From IMG/VR virus record IMGVR_UViG_3300033149_006612, positions 1 through 64,000 of that record: 64,000 nt of DNA. One strand, given 5' to 3'. Made by a program: the position numbers and the translations under genes. Source of the stretch: a virus. Shown here piece after piece: positions 5,758 to 46,490 of this stretch. The notes beneath the pieces were generated by a model, which was not told where the DNA came from, ran no database searches, and saw nothing but the letters and a program-made list of their open reading frames with translations. Position 1 is the stretch's first letter. Every line of letters starts with the position of its first letter.

Positions 5758-7569
5758 TCAGCCGATCTCCGAAGGTTCAACCGGTCTGGGTTTCTTAAGC
5801 GATACCCGTTCGATTTTATGTTTAAGGACACACCGACAGTTATGAGACACGATCCCGTTAACCAGATAACTCTCGTCCCCCTCTACGGAGAAGTTATAAA
5901 CCATAGCTGTGCCTTGTATCTGTGTTACATGTAAAATCGGGGCATGAAAGAAACCGACGAAGCTTACCTCGCCAGCATCATTGATGGGGGAGGAACGATC
6001 GCGCCTGCCGTCCGAAGAGGTAGAACCGTACCTCAGATTACACCAAAACTCTTTACATCCAACACTGACCTTAAATCGCTGCAGTGGGTGAAGGAAACCG
6101 CTGGAATCAACGGGTGGATGAAAGTGAAGCGATTTCAAGCCACTACCGCCAACGCTTCTACCCCCTGCAAAACCGCACTTCCATATCTCATCGTCAAGCG
6201 TAGACAAGCGGAGGTTATATCCGGCTTTCCAGGAGGACGAAGTACCGAGGACGTCGATACCTACATCCGCCAATTTCAGTGCCCGCCGCTCATATGAAAA
6301 TCGAATGACCCTACCGGTTCCCGACATAGCCAGTACGAGCATCTCCTCACCCGTAAACCGGCCGACCTCCTTCCATCCGGAGTCGGTAAGGAGTCTGTGA
6401 TTGCCGGTCAACCTGAGCTTTCGATGGAAGACTTCGACCTCTACTAGATCACCGGCTTCTCGACTGGCTGTCCTATTTACCCTTCGATATACACCTTGAT
6501 GGGAAAGAACCGCATCCCCCGGTTTAATGTCTGCAATTCGTTTCGGTCCTTTCACCGTGGCTATGACGGCGTCCGGATCCGCTATACAGTTCGCGATCTC
6601 CCCAACCGGCCCCGCCGGATCACGTGGAAACATCAGACCGTTGGAAAATCTCTCATCCAGCTTCCTCTTCTGCCCGTCCAGTCTAACGTGGGAATCCCGG
6701 ACCCTGCCGTCCCTGGCGGTCAACCAGATCTTCCACATCTCCCTGTCCGGTGTAAGCTGCCTGGCTATCTGTTCCGTGGTGTCCTGTTCAGCCAAACTGG
6801 TCAATTTTCCGACCTCCGTTCTGGCTATCACCTGTGGCCTGGATCTCACCCACCTGTTGTATCTAGCATTAATCCGGTCGAGTACCTCCCGTTCGGGAAC
6901 TCCCTCCTCGATGCTCTTCCGGATAATCCTGCCGAGGTCGTTAAGGGTAGTGGTACTCAATTGATCCACCAGGGGGGGAGCATAGTTGGCGAGGTAGGAT
7001 TCGGCTGAGGTAGTAAATCCAGGCCAGTCAAAGCCGAGCTCCGCCGCTTTCCATTTTGCAGCCTTGGTGGCCACACCGAGACCGAATACCTCAAGTTGAG
7101 CGGTCAGTCGATCCCCGGTTCGTTTCAACGTTCGGGAGACGACCACGTCCAGATCGGCTGCCCGAAATTCCTGTGCTCTGATGTCCGCGCCCTTCCTCGG
7201 CTTCCGGATCAATTTCGACTTCCGGATGGCCTTGGCGATCTCGGCAAACTCCACGGCGAAATGCTTCCGCATGATGATTCGCAGCTGATTTTCAAACCCG
7301 GCCGCCCGCCTGATCCACCTGGCCCAGTATCTGTCGTCCGCCGTGGCCCGTGCCTTGAACTCTGCAGACCTGATCCGTTTGATGTCGGCCGAGAACGGAA
7401 CGGTGACCGTCCCGGCACCGGCCTCCCAGATCTTATGCCGCCTCCGCCATTGACTGTGGCAGAACGCCGCACGCTGCGCCCGCTCCGGGAAATCCCGCCT
7501 GGACTCCGGATCTCCCATACAACGCTTCATCCATCCGGCCCTGGTTTCTCCTCTCCTCGGTTCCGGCAT
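5758..7569 (-). CDS. MuF/SPP1 gp7-like head morphogenesis protein containing an intein
   Basis: IARTE, KIWLTARDGRVRDSH..LDGQ, LMFPRDP...EIAN|CRC motifs, interrupted by an intein. Confidence 0.9.
   Translation of the reverse strand: MPEPRRGETRAGWMKRCMGDPESRRDFPERAQRAAFCHSQWRRRHKIWEAGAGTVTVPFSADIKRIRSAEFKARATADDRYWARWIRRAAGFENQLRIIMRKHFAVEFAEIAKAIRKSKLIRKPRKGADIRAQEFRAADLDVVVSRTLKRTGDRLTAQLEVFGLGVATKAAKWKAAELGFDWPGFTTSAESYLANYAPPLVDQLSTTTLNDLGRIIRKSIEEGVPEREVLDRINARYNRWVRSRPQVIARTEVGKLTSLAEQDTTEQIARQLTPDREMWKIWLTARDGRVRDSHVRLDGQKRKLDERFSNGLMFPRDPAGPVGEIANCIADPDAVIATVKGPKRIADIKPGDAVLSHQGVYRRVNRTASREAGDLVEVEVFHRKLRLTGNHRLLTDSGWKEVGRFTGEEMLVLAMSGTGRVIRFSYERRALKLADVGIDVLGTSSSWKAGYNLRLSTLDDEIWKCGFAGGRSVGGSGLKSLHFHPPVDSSGFLHPLQRFKVSVGCKEFWCNLRYGSTSSDGRRDRSSPINDAGEVSFVGFFHAPILHVTQIQGTAMVYNFSVEGDESYLVNGIVSHNCRCVLKHKIERVSLKKPRPVEPSEIG
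5839..6588 (-). mobile_element. Intein of 250 aa within MuF
   Basis: Block A CIADPDAVIAT, block B LRLTGNHRLL, blocks F/G VYNFSVEGDESYLVNGIVSHN followed by Cys+1; excision restores EIANCRC. Confidence 0.9.
5944..6297 (+). CDS. Single-motif LAGLIDADG homing-endonuclease-like ORF, antisense inside the intein (probably degenerate)
   Basis: AYLASIIDGGGTI (LAGLIDADG-like; acidic residue of GEG replaced by G), SNTDLKSLQWVK and LPYLIVKRRQAE motifs. Confidence 0.7.
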   Translation: MKETDEAYLASIIDGGGTIAPAVRRGRTVPQITPKLFTSNTDLKSLQWVKETAGINGWMKVKRFQATTANASTPCKTALPYLIVKRRQAEVISGFPGGRSTEDVDTYIRQFQCPPLI

Positions 7570-8018: not shown

Positions 8019-9463
8019 CTTCCATCTACCCCTGAGGAATACAGCCGAATCACTTTTTCCGCCCCGCCGTCGGCGTAAGCCTCGTTCAACTTTTCGGCTT
8101 CCAGCCCCTCGATCCCGGTAATCATGATCATCGGGTCCATCTCCACCAAGGCCTGCAATGCTCCCGGCGTCAATTGACCGAGTCCGTGTTGTAACGGTCC
8201 CTTGTCGAGGTCCGCCCGGATCTCGTCTACCTTGAGGACGTTGTGCCTGGCGTAGATGTCGTGATTTTCGGCTTCCACCCGGTCATCCCTGGGATTTAAT
8301 CCGATCCAGAACATCTCCAATTCGTTGATTAGATCGTTCTCGGTAATCTCGGCAATCCGTGGAATCGTACTGACGTTGATCCGTTTGGCTATCATTTCAG
8401 CGATCGGCTTTCGGGCTTCCTCCACCGATTGACTGGCGCTTATCTCACCCTGGCTCCGGTTGACGTCCCTCTCCACACCGAAATCCTGCGGTTTCAGGTC
8501 AAAACAGTAGGCCAGGACTCTGGTGAGCATTTCTTGATATTTCAGATATAGGCCCTCATCCCCGGCTGGCTTCAGTTCCAGGACCTCCGGTCTCACCTCG
8601 GCACCGGATTCCAACTCCTCACCGAATCCACCGAAAAAGCCCGGTGAACCCCTACCGGCAAGTGTAGTCTGCCAGAGGTGTTGGAACGCCTGGATCTCAC
8701 TCCGATCGGTATTGGCCCCCAGCCATACCATGATTGCCGGATACGCATTACTGGCAACCTCCTTCTGGTATGAACTCAGGCCGAGCCACGCATCTATAAT
8801 CTCGATTGCGGTTTCAAGAGGCGAAATACCAAACGGTTCGAAGGACCGCTTCCTCATCATGAGGTACTCTATCTGTTTATCCTTCAGGACGGCCACCCTC
8901 CTACCTTGGGCTTCCTGGACCCACCTGAAGGATTCCGGATCTCCGTCCCAACCGCGTATCTTCGATACGGTGTAGCCGGGTACCGCCTCCAGCGCTAGGA
9001 CGTCGTTGCTATTGACGTTGTCCGGGCGCTCCACATACTCCCATACCCCGGCATCCCAGATCAAGATGTCCTCGACGATCTGACCGATGAAGGTGCCGAA
9101 ATCGTCATCATCGGAATTCGGGTTATCCAGGACGGCCCGGACCTGTGCGGCCGCCTCCTGTAGGAGTACGCTTTCCTGTTCCGATTCGGGTTTCTTGACC
9201 GGCTGAATGCCGTAATCCAGCCTCATGATCCCCCTCCTGATCAGGTTGATGGCCCTGCTGGCCATCGCGGTCTCAGAGAAGGCCATGATTTCAGCCACCC
9301 TACGCCTGGGACGTCTCCTGGCCACCTGGCCGTAGGGAACGCCGCCGGATCTGCCGAGTGAAAATCCGGTACGTTTGACGGTAGTCCTCCTATCAGCCTC
9401 CAGTACCGGAGCCGTCATCGGTCTTGCCGTTAGAATCCCGTGGCGTTCGAGCAGCCTCCGCAT
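8015..9463 (-). CDS. Portal protein
   Basis: LDNPN, IVEDILIWDAG, GISPLE, FG...DVNRS and VDEIRA.L...PL portal motifs; upstream of MuF. Confidence 0.9.
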   Translation of the reverse strand: MRRLLERHGILTARPMTAPVLEADRRTTVKRTGFSLGRSGGVPYGQVARRRPRRRVAEIMAFSETAMASRAINLIRRGIMRLDYGIQPVKKPESEQESVLLQEAAAQVRAVLDNPNSDDDDFGTFIGQIVEDILIWDAGVWEYVERPDNVNSNDVLALEAVPGYTVSKIRGWDGDPESFRWVQEAQGRRVAVLKDKQIEYLMMRKRSFEPFGISPLETAIEIIDAWLGLSSYQKEVASNAYPAIMVWLGANTDRSEIQAFQHLWQTTLAGRGSPGFFGGFGEELESGAEVRPEVLELKPAGDEGLYLKYQEMLTRVLAYCFDLKPQDFGVERDVNRSQGEISASQSVEEARKPIAEMIAKRINVSTIPRIAEITENDLINELEMFWIGLNPRDDRVEAENHDIYARHNVLKVDEIRADLDKGPLQHGLGQLTPGALQALVEMDPMIMITGIEGLEAEKLNEAYADGGAEKVIRLYSSGVDGR

Positions 9464-40777: not shown

Positions 40778-41818
40778 TTATAAATAGCCCCCGGCGAAAC
40801 CCCGAGCAGGATCGCCGTACTTGTCGATCACCGGACAATGATCGAGGAACCATCGCACCTGCTTCGGTGAAGCCGACTGTAGGACCACCTTTTCCCGACC
40901 ACCTCTGTCCCGTAATGACGCGATAAATGCACGCCCTTCACGGGCTGCCGCCTCCGGGAGTTCCGGAATGTGGTACCGCTGTTGGAGCAGATTGGCGATC
41001 CCCCAAGGGGCGGATACCGCGTCATATAGGCCACGGGCAGTCCCGATCAGTCTTCCTTGATAGATTCTCACCGCCTGGAGATTACGGGCATGGCGCACGA
41101 TCTTTCGCGCCGCTTCGACATCGGCCAATAACTCTTCAACTTCCCGTCCCTGGAAGAGGGCTCTCCTCTTCGCCCGCCAGGCCATCAGGCGATCGGGATC
41201 GACACCGGGACACTTGCCCCGATAGGCAGCTCCAAGGCAATGATCCGCCGCAGCTGTGAAGACCGCGGTATCGGGAATATGGACCGCCTTCGACCGGAAT
41301 CCTGGTAACGCCGCGTAGACCAACCACTCCCCGTTCTCAAAGTGAATCGTGCCGGAGCGTTCCCGGTTAGATGTGCCGCCGTCGACCTCTTTGAACCCGT
41401 CCGGCCAGACGATGAGGTTGTCACCCTCACTACGACCAAACCAACAAAAGGATGTAAGCCCGGCTACTTCAGACGCGAGCTGGGAAATCACCTGGCCCAA
41501 GCTGGATGCTTGAAGAAATTTTTCGGGCGTTTGCCCATACCCGGGATCACCCGGGCGGTGGTGGTCGATCCGGGTAATCGGTGTGTAATTCTCCGCCTCG
41601 AATTCCAGTTGGAGGTCGAGACAGAAACCACACTCGACCAAGACGATTAAATCCGGTCGATCAGGTCCACCTATCCAGCCGTCCGCCTCGTAGGCGTTGC
41701 CGGGGTGGACCCAATTGGCCCCCACCGAGGCATAGGCGACTGTCTCGCCTACCCCCCGGAGGAGGCGTTCGATCTCATAGATTTCGGGATCTGATGCCCC
41801 GAGTATCCACAGTCTCAT
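40778..41818 (-). CDS. Hypothetical protein with a DHH-like motif
   Basis: LGA.DPE, VEC, IDHHRPGDPGYG, AADHCL..AY.G.CPGV, YGDP.RGFAG; AGGAGGT RBS. Confidence 0.65.
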   Translation of the reverse strand: MRLWILGASDPEIYEIERLLRGVGETVAYASVGANWVHPGNAYEADGWIGGPDRPDLIVLVECGFCLDLQLEFEAENYTPITRIDHHRPGDPGYGQTPEKFLQASSLGQVISQLASEVAGLTSFCWFGRSEGDNLIVWPDGFKEVDGGTSNRERSGTIHFENGEWLVYAALPGFRSKAVHIPDTAVFTAAADHCLGAAYRGKCPGVDPDRLMAWRAKRRALFQGREVEELLADVEAARKIVRHARNLQAVRIYQGRLIGTARGLYDAVSAPWGIANLLQQRYHIPELPEAAAREGRAFIASLRDRGGREKVVLQSASPKQVRWFLDHCPVIDKYGDPARGFAGGYL

Positions 41819-41846
41819 CGTAGCTCACCTCCTGTAGTTTTCAACT

Positions 41847-41876
41847 ATTATAACACAGGGCTATGACGTTCATCAA
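41847..41876 (-). promoter_or_regulatory. Leftward sigma70-type promoter
   Basis: TTGATG-N18-TATAAT with extended -10 (TGTGT TATAAT). Confidence 0.7.
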
Positions 41877-41976
41877 GTGATTTTCGTCACATAACGGATG
41901 GACTCTAGCCGGGCAATAATGGTTCACCTTAAAAATCGAAATTTAAACTGAACCATACTTGGAGCCCATTTACTAC

Positions 41977-42006
41977 TTGACAAAACCTATCCATCTGTGG
42001 TATAAT
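41977..42006 (+). promoter_or_regulatory. Rightward consensus sigma70 promoter driving the ribozyme-punctuated operon
   Basis: TTGACA (41977-41982)-N18-TATAAT (42001-42006) with TG extended -10. Confidence 0.85.
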
Positions 42007-42031
42007 AAAAAGTATGGAAAGGAGAAACACG

Positions 42032-42163
42032 ATGAACAAAGACCCACCGAGGACAATACAGCCCCTGTCGCAAGGCAAGCCACAGGAATCCTACGCTCCC
42101 ACGATGGAGACAGGCAGGGGGTCACGAAGAGGTCGAGCCAGTACGGGTCTGCCAGGACGCTAG
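42032..42163 (+). CDS. Possible 43-aa leader peptide (MNKDPPRTIQ...)
   Basis: AAAGGAGAAACACGATGAACAA start signal identical to that of the 43129 gene. Confidence 0.4.
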   Translation: MNKDPPRTIQPLSQGKPQESYAPTMETGRGSRRGRASTGLPGR

Positions 42164-42298
42164 AGGCCGAGGCAACGGATGACGCCGAGCAGAGCCACCC
42201 GGAGAGCGATGAAGACCTCGATTGAACGTGAGCGAATCGGGTAAGCCCACACCATGTGGCCGCCACCCGACCGAGCACCAGGTGCCGGTATAGTAAAT

Positions 42299-42365
42299 GA
42301 CCTGTCCGGACATACCGATTGAGTCCGCTGATGAGGATGGGGGTAGGGTCCCATCGAAACAGGTC
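42299..42365 (+). ncRNA. Hammerhead ribozyme, type III (HH1)
   Basis: Stem III GACCUG/CAGGUC; GUC site with cleavage after 42306; stem I CGGAC/GUCCG; CUGAUGA; stem II GAUGGG/CCCAUC; GAAA; loop-loop complementarity UACC/GGUA. Confidence 0.88.
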
Positions 42366-42377
42366 TTGGAGGTTACC

Positions 42378-42665
42378 ATGGCAGAGCGTTATACTCCTCA
42401 AGTTGGAGATCATTTAGTCCCCGACGGCTGGGGGTTTGGTGAGAATCTGGAAGCCGATGACGGGTATAGTGACGGCAGTTTCCCCGGATGTGAATTCCGG
42501 CTTCCGGCGGGCCTTGACCGTGTATACCGGCTTGCAGTCAACGTGAAGGTCACCGGCGGTGACCACATCGTGAACTTCGGCAGGTATCGGTCCCGCTGCA
42601 GGATCGAGTTTGTCGGTGACGGTGAACCGAGCACCTTCACCGGTGGATGGATCTACCACTCCTAA
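42378..42665 (+). CDS. Hypothetical 95-aa protein (cassette 1)
   Basis: GGAGG at 42368-42372 before MAERYTP; the track extension to 42297 runs through the ribozyme. Confidence 0.7.
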   Translation: MAERYTPQVGDHLVPDGWGFGENLEADDGYSDGSFPGCEFRLPAGLDRVYRLAVNVKVTGGDHIVNFGRYRSRCRIEFVGDGEPSTFTGGWIYHS

Positions 42666-42666
42666 A

Positions 42667-42730
42667 GCCGAAACCAGCCGAAAGGCTGGTCTGCTGGAGA
42701 TAACCTCCCAGCACTGATGATGGCAGGTTA
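42667..42730 (+). ncRNA. Hammerhead ribozyme, type II with pseudoknot (HH2)
   Basis: GCC-GAAA-CCAGCC gaaa GGCUGG-UC (cleavage after 42691)-UGCUGG...CCAGCA-CUGAUGA-u-GGC; loop UAACCU pairs with 3' AGGUUA. Confidence 0.92.
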
Positions 42731-42750
42731 CCATCGAGGAGGTTTTTACC

Positions 42751-43023
42751 ATGGAATGCCCACTTTGCGGTTCCCGCGGTTCTCGTTTCCTTAAGCCCCA
42801 TCCGAGCGTTTTCGGCGTTTACGAATGCCGAAAATGCCGAGCATTGTTCGGCGAATGCTACCTGGGAGATAGCTATTCGCTAGTGTCTCCCATGTGGTCC
42901 CGGCAGGACGTCGAGGATACCGAATGCCGGTACTTCGATTTCATCTGTGTGGGATCCGGTGGGATCACACGCAGGCATGGTTGGTTCAATCCGGCTGACG
43001 GTCGGATCGTTCAAACCGGTTGA
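42751..43023 (+). CDS. Zinc-ribbon hypothetical protein (cassette 2)
   Basis: GAGGAGG RBS; CPLC...CRKC; YFDF...RRHGW......QTG. Confidence 0.75.
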   Translation: MECPLCGSRGSRFLKPHPSVFGVYECRKCRALFGECYLGDSYSLVSPMWSRQDVEDTECRYFDFICVGSGGITRRHGWFNPADGRIVQTG

Positions 43024-43027
43024 GTAA

Positions 43028-43093
43028 GCCGAAACCGGCTAGAGATAGCCGGTCTAGCCGGGATGACCTCCGGCTACTGATGATGGTAGGTCA
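43028..43093 (+). ncRNA. Hammerhead ribozyme, type II with pseudoknot (HH3)
   Basis: GCC-GAAA-CCGGCUA gaga UAGCCGG-UC (cleavage after 43054)-UAGCCGG...CCGGCUA-CUGAUGA-u-GGU; UGACCU pairs with AGGUCA. Confidence 0.92.
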
Positions 43094-43128
43094 CTCTAAC
43101 GTTAAAAGAAAATAAAAGGAGAAACACG

Positions 43129-43536
43129 ATGAACAACGAGGTAATCGAAATCCAAGTCGCTTGCACTGACAACATCACGGCTAAATGGGCCGTGATTAAA
43201 CTGATGGTTAAGACGTCGGTCATCGACGTCTTAAGCAGATGCGATAACGGCGTCTACAAACCGCAGGTCAAGACCGGAGAGGAGATGTTCGCAATCCGTC
43301 CGGTAGTGGATGCGGTCGACATCGAGATGATCTGCCCCACCGGGGTGGTCAAGTGGGTCGCCAAACCCGGGGAGGAGATGTTCGCATTGGTCCGCCCGAT
43401 AGTGGAGGCGATCGACATCGAGCTGGGTTGCCCCACCGGGCAGATCAAGTGGGTCGTCAAAACCGACGGGATCGTCTCCATCCACGCCGTCGATGACCAG
43501 GGAATGGAGACGGTATCAATCATCAACCTGTGCTGA
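43129..43536 (+). CDS. Hypothetical protein with an internal repeat of about 32 aa (cassette 3)
   Basis: K.GEEMFA..RP.V.A.DIE..CPTG..KWV.K twice; AAGGAG RBS. Confidence 0.7.
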   Translation: MNNEVIEIQVACTDNITAKWAVIKLMVKTSVIDVLSRCDNGVYKPQVKTGEEMFAIRPVVDAVDIEMICPTGVVKWVAKPGEEMFALVRPIVEAIDIELGCPTGQIKWVVKTDGIVSIHAVDDQGMETVSIINLC

Positions 43537-43538
43537 CA

Positions 43539-43607
43539 GCCGAAATGCCGGGGGACCTCCCCCGGCATCTGCCGGAGATGACCTCCCGGCACTGATGAGG
43601 CAGGTCA
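43539..43607 (+). ncRNA. Hammerhead ribozyme, type II with pseudoknot (HH4)
   Basis: GCC-GAAA-UGCCGGGGG accu CCCCCGGCA-UC (cleavage after 43569)-UGCCGG...CCGGCA-CUGAUGA-GGC; UGACCU pairs with AGGUCA. Confidence 0.92.
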
Positions 43608-43639
43608 AATAATTCACCAAATCAGAAAGGAGAAAACAG

Positions 43640-43834
43640 ATGAAGGAAACGGGCATAGACGGAAACTGCCCCAGCTGGCCCGGTGCCAGCGAAGTTTACT
43701 CCAAGGCATACCGCTATATGGAGAAACATGGAGCAGACCACGCATTAATCAAAGCCCTGGAAAAGGGTAATGAAGAGGAGGTCAAAGCAAATATGCTCAG
43801 GATAAACACCGAATCGCTCCTGAGCATGGAATGA
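43640..43834 (+). CDS. Hypothetical 64-aa protein (cassette 4)
   Basis: AAAGGAG RBS directly after HH4. Confidence 0.65.
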   Translation: MKETGIDGNCPSWPGASEVYSKAYRYMEKHGADHALIKALEKGNEEEVKANMLRINTESLLSME

Positions 43835-43924
43835 AAGCCAATTAATAATCGTGAATCTGTTACCTATTAGTGCGCCGGGGGTGCCCCCGGCGCACAGGAG
43901 AAACGCACACACAGGAGGAACACG

Positions 43925-45043
43925 ATGGACACCAGACAGAAAATTAAAAAGATATACACCACCCTTAACGATCAACTGGTAGAGAGGTCCGAAGTCCTAC
44001 AAGGGTCGATAATAGCGATCCTTGCTCGGAAACACCTCTTCATGATCGGGCCTCCGGGTACGGCCAAATCACTCGGAATCGAGAAGTTCTGCGAGTCAAT
44101 CTCCGGCATGACATACTTCGAGGAACTGATGACCCAGCAGACAAAGCCCGAGGACCTCTTCGGTCCGATCAAAGTCTCAGCGTATAGAGAAGATCGATAT
44201 GAGCGGAACGTCGAAGGATTCCTACCGACTGCCGACATCGCCTTTCTCGACGAGATCTTTAAGGCCGGTGGACCAAATCTTAATCCGCTGCTGAGGCTGA
44301 CGGATGAAACGCGCAAATTCCGGAACGGCAAACCCCAGATGGAGCGATGTCCGCTGAACAGCCTGTTTGCCGCCAGTAATGAATTCCCCGAGAACGCAGC
44401 CGAACTCAGCGCTCTTTGGGACCGGCTGCTACTCCGATATGTGGTGGACGACATCGTCGATGATTCCAACTTCGAAGCCATGATGGCCTTGGAGGAAATC
44501 AAAATCGAGCACACCATCACCAAGGAGGAGCTCCGGCAAGCCCAGGAGGAGGTCGACCGGGTAAAGATCACACCAGAAATCATCCATGTGCTGACCGAAC
44601 TCCGCTCGAAGCTCCGGAAGGAAGGATATATATTTTCTCCCCGGAGATGGCGGGAGTCAAAGCAGGTCCTCAGGGCTCATGCCTGGTTCCACGGCCGGGA
44701 CGAGGTCTCCGAGGATGATCTTGAAATCCTGGCCGCGGTCCTCTGGGACAGGCCCGAGCAACGGCGCGAGGTACTTCGCATCTTGATGTCCACCACCAAT
44801 CCCGACACTGCCACAGCCCTAGCGTTGTTCGACGACATCCAAGAGATCATTGATGACATCGAAAAGCAGCCGGACGAATCGGCCAAACTCGCTGCCAGTC
44901 AGGAGGCCGTAGTCAAACTCCGGGATATGATCCCGCTGTTTGACAACTTCCGGCCCCACGCTAAGATTTTTGAATTAAAAAATCAGGCCATAGAGATGCA
45001 ACGTGCCGTCGTCCGGAGGTATTTCGGAATTAACATTAACTGA
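43925..45043 (+). CDS. MoxR/RavA-family AAA+ ATPase
   Basis: GPPGTAKS, LFGP, FLDEIFKA, ASNE, ALWDR, SPRRW. Confidence 0.9.
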   Translation: MDTRQKIKKIYTTLNDQLVERSEVLQGSIIAILARKHLFMIGPPGTAKSLGIEKFCESISGMTYFEELMTQQTKPEDLFGPIKVSAYREDRYERNVEGFLPTADIAFLDEIFKAGGPNLNPLLRLTDETRKFRNGKPQMERCPLNSLFAASNEFPENAAELSALWDRLLLRYVVDDIVDDSNFEAMMALEEIKIEHTITKEELRQAQEEVDRVKITPEIIHVLTELRSKLRKEGYIFSPRRWRESKQVLRAHAWFHGRDEVSEDDLEILAAVLWDRPEQRREVLRILMSTTNPDTATALALFDDIQEIIDDIEKQPDESAKLAASQEAVVKLRDMIPLFDNFRPHAKIFELKNQAIEMQRAVVRRYFGININ

Positions 45044-45053
45044 GGAGGCAGTC

Positions 45054-46490
45054 ATGTTCGTAACCAATGTTGACGCATTCGACCGGAGGACATTCGAGGA
45101 CATCGCTCCCCGGTCCAGCAAGGTGGAGGACATCCGGTCCTCCGCCGAATATTCCGAATACGGAGACCTGCTAGAGGATCTCATGGTTGACGGCTTCGGC
45201 TCCCTGTACAAATACGCCCCCCGGGTTCTGGAAGACGTCCCACCGGAACGGATTCTCTCCAAGCGGGTCATTGAACAGTGGCAACAGTTACCGGAATGGC
45301 AGCAGTTCCGGAAGTTCACCGTAGGTGACGAGATCGTCAGTATGGGAGCCGTAGACGCCGTGTACCGGGTGTTCAAGGAGATGCCGGTCGAGGTTAAACG
45401 ACGCCAACGGGAACTCCAGGACTTCTCGGATCGGCTGACCGAAATGTTGAATTCCGACGATACTGATTTTGGTAGTGACGAATTCAAGGATGCGGTAACC
45501 GACATGGTCGAAGCCGGTAATAGGGTGGATCAAGCCCTGGATGCCGACGAGGACCGGATACGAAAATTGTGCCGGGTGGCACTTCGAGAGGCCGCGGATG
45601 AGGCAGAGATCGAGGGAAAGGCAATGCTGGCACTCGGTTTTGATGACTCTACCGGGGAACTTAACGGTTCCCACAAGGACGATCGAATCAAAATAGCCAG
45701 CATGCTGCAGAACAATCCCAAGCTTCGAGAAATCGTTAAACTCGCCGGTCGATTCTGCTATGTGGCGGATAAAAAGCAGCGGGAGAAATCCGAATACGCC
45801 CGGTCCCAGGTATCCGGTATTGAATTCGGAGACGACCTGCAGCGGGTAACCCCCTCCGATATGGCCCTCCTGTCCGATAAAGACTTAGAGGAATTGTTCT
45901 GGCTGAAGTACATCGAATCAGGACTCCAGCTCTACAAGATCACCGGCACCGAGACCCTAGGTAAAGGACCCGTCGTGATAATGGTCGACTGTTCCGGTAG
46001 TATGGCGGGTCAGAAGGATATATGGGCAAAAGCCATGGCCCTAGCGGGTTATTCCATAGCCCGGAAGCAAAACCGGGACTTCGCCTTTCTGTTATACAAC
46101 ACCGAGGTCAGGAAACAGATCTACCTTAAATCCGGCACCGGCAAACGGAACATGACCGGTCTGGCCGAGATTCTATCATCCGGCGTCGGCGGTGGTACCG
46201 ATTTCGAAGTTCCCATCACATACGCCATGCGGGAGGTCCTAACCAGGTCCGAATTTACCAAGGCCGACATCATCTTCATCTCGGACGGTTACTACATGAT
46301 CGGTGACGACTGGTTCCGGGATTATCAAACCCGAAAGGACGGTATGGAATTCGCGTTCTGGGGAATTCAAATCGGCCCCAGGCTGAGAGGTATGGACGCG
46401 TTGGATAGACTGAGCGACGACGTGGTTTACCTGGACGGTGACATCCTGGCCAATCAGGACCGGGCTTTTGACATGGCCTTTACCATCTAA
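45054..46490 (+). CDS. VWA-domain protein (ViaA-like partner)
   Basis: GPV...VDCSGSM MIDAS, GGGTDF, ISDG; GAGGAGG RBS before MFVTN. Confidence 0.88.
   Translation: MFVTNVDAFDRRTFEDIAPRSSKVEDIRSSAEYSEYGDLLEDLMVDGFGSLYKYAPRVLEDVPPERILSKRVIEQWQQLPEWQQFRKFTVGDEIVSMGAVDAVYRVFKEMPVEVKRRQRELQDFSDRLTEMLNSDDTDFGSDEFKDAVTDMVEAGNRVDQALDADEDRIRKLCRVALREAADEAEIEGKAMLALGFDDSTGELNGSHKDDRIKIASMLQNNPKLREIVKLAGRFCYVADKKQREKSEYARSQVSGIEFGDDLQRVTPSDMALLSDKDLEELFWLKYIESGLQLYKITGTETLGKGPVVIMVDCSGSMAGQKDIWAKAMALAGYSIARKQNRDFAFLLYNTEVRKQIYLKSGTGKRNMTGLAEILSSGVGGGTDFEVPITYAMREVLTRSEFTKADIIFISDGYYMIGDDWFRDYQTRKDGMEFAFWGIQIGPRLRGMDALDRLSDDVVYLDGDILANQDRAFDMAFTI

Follow-up and report, generated by a model that had tools for sequence, protein, structure and literature searches.

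Small genes of an uncultured phage are separated from each other by hammerhead ribozymes encoded on the same strand, which raises the question of what becomes of their common transcript: whether it is cut into ordinary linear mRNAs, whether the pieces released between neighbouring ribozymes close into protein-coding circles, or whether the ribozymes serve at the DNA level as points at which genes are gained, lost and shuffled. The window analysed here covers the first 64 kb of a phage record of 80,182 bp, which is rated complete and has direct terminal repeats. Both the layout of such arrays and the idea of circular RNA products date from a publication of 2011, and the locus opens no new question in this respect: Perreault et al. 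(PLoS Comput Biol; PMC3088659) proposed that clustered phage hammerheads process transcripts into single-gene mRNAs, or possibly into spliced or circular products. No biological role has yet been proven for the hundreds of hammerheads known from phage genomes, so that each clean array makes a usable test case; in the one described here a consensus promoter precedes three canonical ribozymes, and the units are short enough to be transcribed in vitro with ease.

A cmscan search of the whole window against Rfam 15 returned three matches to RF02276 (Hammerhead_II) over the gathering score of 37, and no match to any other family over its gathering score. The same model gave 0 matches in 14 control genomes. 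The three motifs are:

42666-42732, + strand: type II hammerhead HH2 (RF02276, 43.1 bits), predicted cut C42691/U42692
43027-43095, + strand: type II hammerhead HH3 (RF02276, 46.5 bits), predicted cut C43054/U43055
43538-43609, + strand: type II hammerhead HH4 (RF02276, 44.0 bits), predicted cut C43569/U43570

All of them fall within 944 nt, each covers model positions 1-66 of 66, and with a length of 67-72 nt they are minimal. The catalytic core can be read in each of them as CUGAUGA and CGAAA, which is canonical, and the NUH cleavage triplet is GUC in HH2 and HH3 and AUC in HH4. A further candidate is located upstream:

42299-42365, + strand: candidate type III-topology hammerhead HH1, predicted cut after C42306, with one extra G between A9 and stem II

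In this candidate the core elements CUGAUGA, GAAA and GUC are present and the minimum-energy fold is a three-way junction; it gave no match to RF00008, the type III model, at E<=10, nor to any other Rfam family.

The arrangement of helices around the cut is central to everything that follows. The first-pass annotation of this DNA had placed stem III of HH2-HH4 wholly upstream of the cut and stem I with the pseudoknot wholly downstream, leaving stem II as the only pairing across it, and this reading was borne out. [quoted passage not shown] Stem II consists of 3 bp, namely GCC/GGC in HH2 (G42667-C42669 with G42722-C42724), GCC/GGU with a G.U pair in HH3 (G43028-C43030 with G43085-U43087) and GCC/GGC in HH4 (G43539-C43541 with G43599-C43601). 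That GCC with GGC or GGU is the sole link across the cut holds for Watson-Crick pairing; the two halves of a hammerhead are joined in addition by non-canonical contacts within its catalytic core.

Folded alone, each motif forms a three-way junction. The minimum-energy fold contains stems I and III in all three cases and stem II in HH2 and HH4, the probability of stem II in HH3 being 0.2. An extra U is inserted between A9 and stem II (G10.1) in HH2 and HH3, and this insertion, as well as the G.U pair in the 3-bp stem II of HH3, could make cleavage slower. When the motifs are embedded in a 1.25-kb precursor, the probability of native stem II drops to 0.001-0.003, and to 0 for HH3, under an equilibrium folding model; with values as low as these, activity in the long transcript would have to rest on co-transcriptional folding and on tertiary contacts, both of which such a model ignores.

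The ribozymes are embedded in a compact series of small genes preceded by a promoter-like sequence:

41977-42006, + strand: sigma-70-type promoter (TTGACA, 18 nt, TG-TATAAT; 12/12 consensus)
42378-42665, + strand: ORF95, member of a widespread unnamed small-protein family, whose stop codon ends 0 nt before HH2
42751-43023, + strand: ORF90, conserved small CxxC...CxxC protein with the motifs CYLGDSY, RYFDF and GITRRHGWFNP
43129-43536, + strand: ORF135, an ORFan with an internal tandem repeat (43274-43369 and 43367-43465)
43640-43834, + strand: ORF64, last small gene of the punctuated block

The promoter has an extended -10 element and points away from the leftward genes, and to judge by its match to the consensus it probably drives the ribozyme-punctuated operon. 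It is followed in the 3' direction by a short ORF, a G+C-rich stretch, the candidate HH1, ORF95, HH2, ORF90, HH3, ORF135, HH4 and ORF64, with only weak terminator-like sites, located inside ORF90. Beyond ORF64 there is a hairpin of -27 kcal/mol (43870-43897) and then genes for a MoxR-like ATPase, a vWA protein and a DUF6744 protein. One ORF lies between each pair of hammerheads in the window, comparable to the single genes or short gene blocks that are flanked in the arrays of phages and prophages.

ORF95, ORF90 and ORF135 are real, ordinary small phage genes. The family of ORF95 comprises 292 representative clusters at E<=0.001 and corresponds to no Pfam or PHROG family. For ORF90 we found 15 homologues with 47-57% identity, and a weak match to Zn_ribbon_IS1595 that is below the cut-off. 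The search for homologues of ORF135 among 5.8 billion proteins retrieved only ORF135 itself.

Cleavage at the predicted sites would release two internal pieces, with exactly the limits and lengths that the first-pass annotation had given them:

42692-43054, + strand: predicted unit 1 (363 nt), comprising the stem I hairpin and pseudoknot, a Shine-Dalgarno sequence, ORF90 and the stem III hairpin of HH3
43055-43569, + strand: predicted unit 2 (515 nt), which carries ORF135

The terminal hairpins of these units amount to -9.0 and -13.2 kcal/mol in unit 1 and to -11.9 and -21.0 kcal/mol in unit 2. A hammerhead cut leaves a 5'-OH on the downstream product and a 2',3'-cyclic phosphate on the upstream product.

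With a search pattern derived from the ribozymes of the window we identified 16 other viral contigs, most of which were confirmed by Rfam as bearing hammerheads, including arrays of 3-4 Rfam-confirmed hammerheads in the contigs L012, L014 and L021. Among 26 related hammerheads from 15 phage loci the same layout recurs, with a stop codon, the hammerhead, a Shine-Dalgarno sequence and a start codon in this order. In 18 of 25 cases the preceding gene has its stop codon -2 to +6 nt from the motif; on the other side, 17 of 24 motifs are followed after 12-33 nt by a start codon with a Shine-Dalgarno sequence in front of it. The array of the window conforms to this rule, as the stop codons are 0, 3 and 1 nt upstream of HH2, HH3 and HH4, respectively, and the start codons 18, 33 and 30 nt downstream. 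As a consequence of such placement, each gene would keep a stop codon and a ribosome-binding site of its own after the cut. In each of five other array-bearing phage records the hammerheads are likewise gathered in one tight cluster on the same strand.

The sequences of related hammerheads also support the pseudoknot between loop I and the 3' tail, the nucleotides immediately past stem II. It comprises 6 bp, UAACCU/AGGUUA in HH2 and UGACCU/AGGUCA in HH3 and HH4. In the 22 of the 26 related hammerheads in which both loop and tail could be parsed, the purine of the loop and the pyrimidine of the tail covary (G-C in 13, A-U in 7, G.U in 1 and a mismatch in 1; Fisher p = 7e-5), and the tail had been absent from the search pattern with which these loci were gathered.

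We therefore consider it likely that HH2-HH4, and probably also HH1, cut one early transcript into linear, hairpin-capped mRNAs with a single gene each. The early operon would be transcribed from 41977-42006, with the type II hammerheads and the probable type III-topology HH1 acting as punctuation, each ribozyme filling the interval from a stop codon to the Shine-Dalgarno sequence that follows. The ribozymes would fold locally during transcription and then cut themselves. The upstream piece would retain its stop codon and have the stable hairpin of stem III and a 2',3'-cyclic phosphate at its 3' end, and the downstream piece would begin with a 5'-OH paired in stem I and locked by the pseudoknot, with the start codon 18-33 nt further on; in the predicted products the 3' hairpin has -13 to -21 kcal/mol and the 5' end is paired from the first nucleotide. 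Because only the 3 bp of stem II hold the products together after the cut, they should separate fast and cleavage should be effectively irreversible. We infer that cleavage takes place in vivo, that the products are released and that the fate of the mRNAs is affected; the likely gain would be that each small early gene becomes independent of its neighbours in stability and translation, and it would depend on the RNases of the host whether RNA with such ends is more stable or less. To our knowledge, a benefit of hammerhead punctuation has been demonstrated in no phage. Processing of this kind agrees with observations made elsewhere: in prophages, single genes are found between clustered hammerheads, and in three arrays that were tested all of the ribozymes cleaved during transcription in vitro (PMC3088659). 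Besides, type II hammerheads located near phage-like genes in Desulfovibrio vulgaris, two of them close together, cleave in vivo (PMC8782182).

Cutting need not be constitutive, and the ribozymes could instead act as dosage switches for small early genes, with cleavage conditional on Mg2+, temperature, a ligand or an approaching ribosome, or some of the copies could be slow or inactive. The stop codon lies only 0-3 nt from the first strand of the ribozyme, so that translation of the upstream gene would have to compete with folding, and the inserted U of HH2 and HH3 and the G.U pair in stem II of HH3 are features that a slow variant might show. Both regulated cleavage and slow variants have been raised for phage hammerheads by Perreault et al. 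(PMC3088659). We regard conditional cleavage as quite unlikely in this array, however, as the cores of HH2-HH4 are fully canonical and the minimal motifs contain no aptamer-like extra domain; in the tested arrays, every ribozyme cleaved efficiently in vitro (PMC3088659).

The topology that favours separation of the products also underlies a different proposal of the first-pass annotation, namely that the halves of the ribozymes are interchangeable, so that a released unit could refold a chimeric hammerhead from its own two ends. Interchangeability as such was confirmed in silico: chimeras composed of a 5' half and the 3' half of the upstream neighbour fold in isolation as canonical three-way junctions, and the neighbour-to-neighbour combinations of stem II strands in the window give 3/3 pairs. 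The halves can be exchanged because stem II, a short and near-generic helix, is the one element that involves both sides of the cut, all others being confined to one side; this property is a by-product of the type II topology and no special adaptation.

It is a further step to assume that the refolded units are closed, by reverse cleavage or by an RtcB-type ligase of the host, into functional circular mRNAs that can be translated. Circular or spliced RNAs from clustered phage hammerheads had already been proposed by Perreault et al. (PMC3088659). If this were true, circular mRNAs would outlast linear early transcripts, and the hammerhead arrays of phages would be a natural prokaryotic system producing protein-coding circular RNA. 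By the established chemistry of hammerheads, the ends of their products are of the kind that RtcB needs, and RtcB is frequent in prokaryotes, being present in 10 of 14 control genomes, so that the host may encode one as well. Hammerheads are also stated, in a review-type source that we count in favour of circles, to circularise RNAs of 83-103 nt in E. coli with an efficiency of 6.7-9.5% (PMC11592204). Nevertheless, closure of the units of this array into translatable circles appears very improbable to us, and we would hardly expect that a sizeable fraction of the 363-nt and 515-nt units should be closed in this way in the natural host, be it by ligase or by reverse cleavage.

Several structural observations speak against closure. 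In a unit of this size 3 bp alone would have to close a loop of ~300-450 nt, and enforcing them costs +4.0 and +7.7 kcal/mol relative to the minimum-energy fold. The first and last 70 nt of the units form 3 and 7 pairs with each other; segments of matching length taken at random from the genome average 7.4 +/- 8. The units thus possess no rod or clamp, unlike viroids, retrozymes and engineered circularisers, in which long helices join the ends. The sole long-range helix of unit 2 joins UGAUGAU of the ribozyme core to a part of the coding sequence and would block the ribozyme. In addition, the stop codon abuts the 5' half-ribozyme, so that a terminating ribosome would cover it. The pair probabilities of the chimeric stem II in the units (0.005 and 0.0001) were considered as evidence against circles and then dropped, since the native ribozymes have equally low values in the 1.25-kb precursor.

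The required enzymes were also sought. Neither RtcB nor an Rnl-type RNA ligase nor a reverse transcriptase (RVT_1) was found among the proteins encoded by the phage, which we count against circles, and RtcB was found in none of the five other array-bearing phage records. Circular and spliced products of such arrays had been sought by Perreault et al., who detected none (data not shown; PMC3088659). The 24-mers that would span the circular junctions (43043-43054 joined to 42692-42703, and 43558-43569 joined to 43055-43066) had 0 exact matches in metagenome contigs, a result that weighs neither way.

A comparison of related arrays bears on the question whether stem II has been selected for pairing between neighbours. 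The 22 parsed ribozymes comprise three covarying types of stem II, GCC/GGC (or GGU) in 13, GUC/GAC in 7 and ACC/GGU in 2, and it is perfectly paired inside every one of them. In the four-member array of L012 all 4/4 ribozymes have a perfect stem II of their own, but one neighbour-to-neighbour combination yields an A.C mismatch, and the array of L065 mixes the GCC/GGC and GUC/GAC types. On account of these three observations, selection is visible in the sequences as acting on stem II pairing inside each ribozyme, not between neighbours. We also considered whether the uniform stem II of arrays such as the present one could reflect selection for cross-compatibility and rejected this, as GCC/GGC is the majority type, copies within an array share ancestry, as in L014, and L065 is mixed. 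With no clamp at the ends, no ligase or reverse transcriptase of the phage and a mismatched neighbour pair in L012, the protein-coding circles of the first-pass annotation found no support.

The annotation had likened such circles to those of retrozymes. In retrozymes and viroid-like RNAs (de la Pena et al. 2020; PMC7761336) two hammerheads on the same strand indeed set free a unit that has a 5'-OH at one end and a 2',3'-cyclic phosphate at the other and can in principle rebuild a ribozyme across the junction, as it could here. However, these elements use type I or III motifs, and their units code for no protein, occur as genomic repeats and show high self-complementarity; they are closed by a tRNA ligase or RtcB of the host and copied by a reverse transcriptase or RNA polymerase (PMC7761336). 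The window has type II motifs and single-copy, protein-coding units devoid of end-to-end pairing, in a phage without a reverse transcriptase, so that the analogy breaks down at several of its defining features (type II motifs, coding single-copy units, no end pairing, no RVT_1).

The remaining proposal concerns DNA: the conserved hammerhead cores could act as recombination points, so that the genes between ribozymes would be acquired, lost and rearranged as cassettes. Some of the loci compared here do show turnover next to hammerheads. L014 contains a duplicated module (7157-7442 and 8234-8511), 75% identical over 288 nt, that starts at the 5' edge of a hammerhead and includes paralogous ORFs with 57% identity, and paralogous ORFs, 45% identical, also occur inside the array of L012. 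In L015 an additional hammerhead and a 66-aa ORF stand where its relatives L013 and L009 have a 210-aa ORF. In the pairs L013/L015 and L007/L020 homology resumes at the hammerhead, or 8 nt before it, and in unrelated phages the hammerhead is the sole DNA in common.

These observations have to be set against others. The longest exact identity between the DNA copies of HH2, HH3 and HH4 is 10-11 bp, and classical homologous recombination needs identity far longer than that. Homologues of ORF90 in 17 other phage contigs have no ribozyme within 3 kb and share no neighbours, and among 15 loci with homologues of ORF95 hammerheads occur in one phage only (L064 and L065), where they do not flank the gene. 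L007 and L020 differ by a 346-nt insertion of a single ORF with a hammerhead at neither end. No hammerhead accompanies the MoxR-vWA module in 12 phage loci, which at 31-48% identity are too distant to show how the array evolved. Where blocks do vary, they end at the 5' edge of the hammerhead, which is a gene boundary, and not at the cuts by which the RNA units are delimited; breakpoints at gene boundaries are expected from ordinary phage mosaicism. The sole close relative of this phage, a sister contig, is 99.3% identical over 8.5 kb and has an identical array, and a blastn search with 41800-45100 against 50,697 phage records gave no match.

The cassette idea is thus met halfway: the duplicated module of L014 and the variable gene content beside hammerheads agree with it, but the ORF90 and ORF95 families are mostly ribozyme-free elsewhere and the ribozyme copies of the window share at most 11 bp of identity. 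The same holds for the comparison of ORF content between related phages that had been suggested as a check, in which genes at the side of hammerheads were found to vary, but the 99.3%-identical relative retains the array unchanged. Small genes in these phages clearly move, and they do so without need of ribozymes; the evidence weakly supports cassette turnover and is non-specific. Given the L014 module some modular turnover at the DNA level is possible, but that the ribozymes themselves act as recombination points seems unlikely to us. The comparative and structural tests thus lean against both circles and ribozyme-bounded cassettes, and the placement rule over 15 phage loci and the 3-bp link between the products put the plain processing model on a somewhat firmer footing.

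With respect to its closest known counterparts, the array resembles those of Perreault et al. (PMC3088659) in having same-strand hammerheads of type II, with a pseudoknot between loop I and the tail, between small genes that vary from array to array. It differs from them in its new host genome, which belongs to an uncultured phage, measures 80 kb and has direct terminal repeats, and in the genes that are flanked; the ORFs of the window exhibit no homology to ORFs of the other arrays compared here. The array also probably mixes one type III-like motif with three motifs of type II. The RF02276 family, for which cleavage in vivo was shown in D. vulgaris (Olzog et al. 2021; PMC8782182), shares with HH2-HH4 the core, the three helices, the open stem II of 2-3 bp, the pseudoknot and the context of phage-like genes; distinctive of the present motifs are the inserted U between A9 and G10.1 in HH2 and HH3 and the AUC triplet of HH4, and their activity is a prediction from sequence.

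Another group of counterparts is found in Mu-like contigs (L009, L012, L013, L015, L016 and L021), in which hammerheads precede the gene of a Mu-type transposase, unlike in the window, where small ORFs are followed by MoxR and vWA genes. Around the ribozymes these contigs have no other DNA or protein similarity to the window. Their hammerheads, however, are of the same flavour (loop GAURACCUC, tail AGGUYA), and they too are set among small early genes in the order of stop codon, hammerhead, Shine-Dalgarno sequence and start codon.

Upstream of ORF95, the operon carries a candidate fourth hammerhead, HH1, which was recognized by its core and its minimum-energy fold, and which is preceded by a G+C-rich stretch that begins after the 43-aa ORF:

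42299-42365, + strand, HH1, hammerhead-like motif of type III topology
42164-42296, + strand, G+C-rich stretch that separates the 43-aa ORF from HH1

The HH1 core is canonical (CUGAUGA, GAAA and GUC), with one additional G between A9 and stem II, and the three-way junction is predicted to be the minimum-energy fold, with cleavage predicted after C42306. Searched against Rfam, HH1 matched no family at E<=1, and RF00008 gave no match even at E<=10. The G+C-rich stretch, in which neither a convincing ORF nor an Rfam match was found, may be a structured leader.

Two repeats and a hairpin were found among the genes of the operon:

42018-42042 and 43115-43139, + strand, near-identical Shine-Dalgarno and start-codon region, two copies
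43274-43465, + strand, internal tandem repeat in ORF135
43870-43897, + strand, perfect 11-bp G+C hairpin between ORF64 and the MoxR gene

The first of these (AAAGGAGAAACACGATGAACAA, 96% identity over 25 nt) stands ahead of the operon's first short ORF and of ORF135, a gene for which no homologue was found in databases and whose repeat units (43274-43369 and 43367-43465, 82% identity over 99 nt) represent a duplicated segment of about 30 aa (GEEMFA..VDIE..CPTG..KWV). The hairpin, whose region (43855-43900) has a predicted folding energy of -27 kcal/mol, lacks a T-run; it may have a role in processing or stability, or else act as an attenuator.

ORF90 (42751-43023, + strand) defines a conserved family of small phage proteins (alignment A2) with the motifs CxxC...CxxC, CYLGDSY, RYFDF and GITRRHGWFNP, for which no Pfam model exceeds the cut-off; at least 17 other viral contigs encode members of this family, and the surrounding genes are unrelated.

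In six other phage contigs (L016:153-2117, L015, L009, L013, L021 and L012) the last hammerhead of the array is directly followed by a gene for a Mu-type transposase (Pfam Mu-transpos_C, HTH_Tnp_Mu_2 and rve), which makes this hammerhead flavour a recurrent feature of the Mu-like phage early operon. Two of these contigs, L015 and L016, also carry other RNAs. A 75-kb phage contig has a GOLLD RNA immediately 5' of an ORF95 homologue, at a locus (L060) with five tRNA matches, one of them within the GOLLD RNA:

L015:8151-8211 (- strand), L015:2686-2772 (- strand) and L016:9151-9237 (+ strand), twister-P1 ribozyme and RAGATH-28 RNAs
L060:1612-2063, + strand, GOLLD RNA (174 bits)
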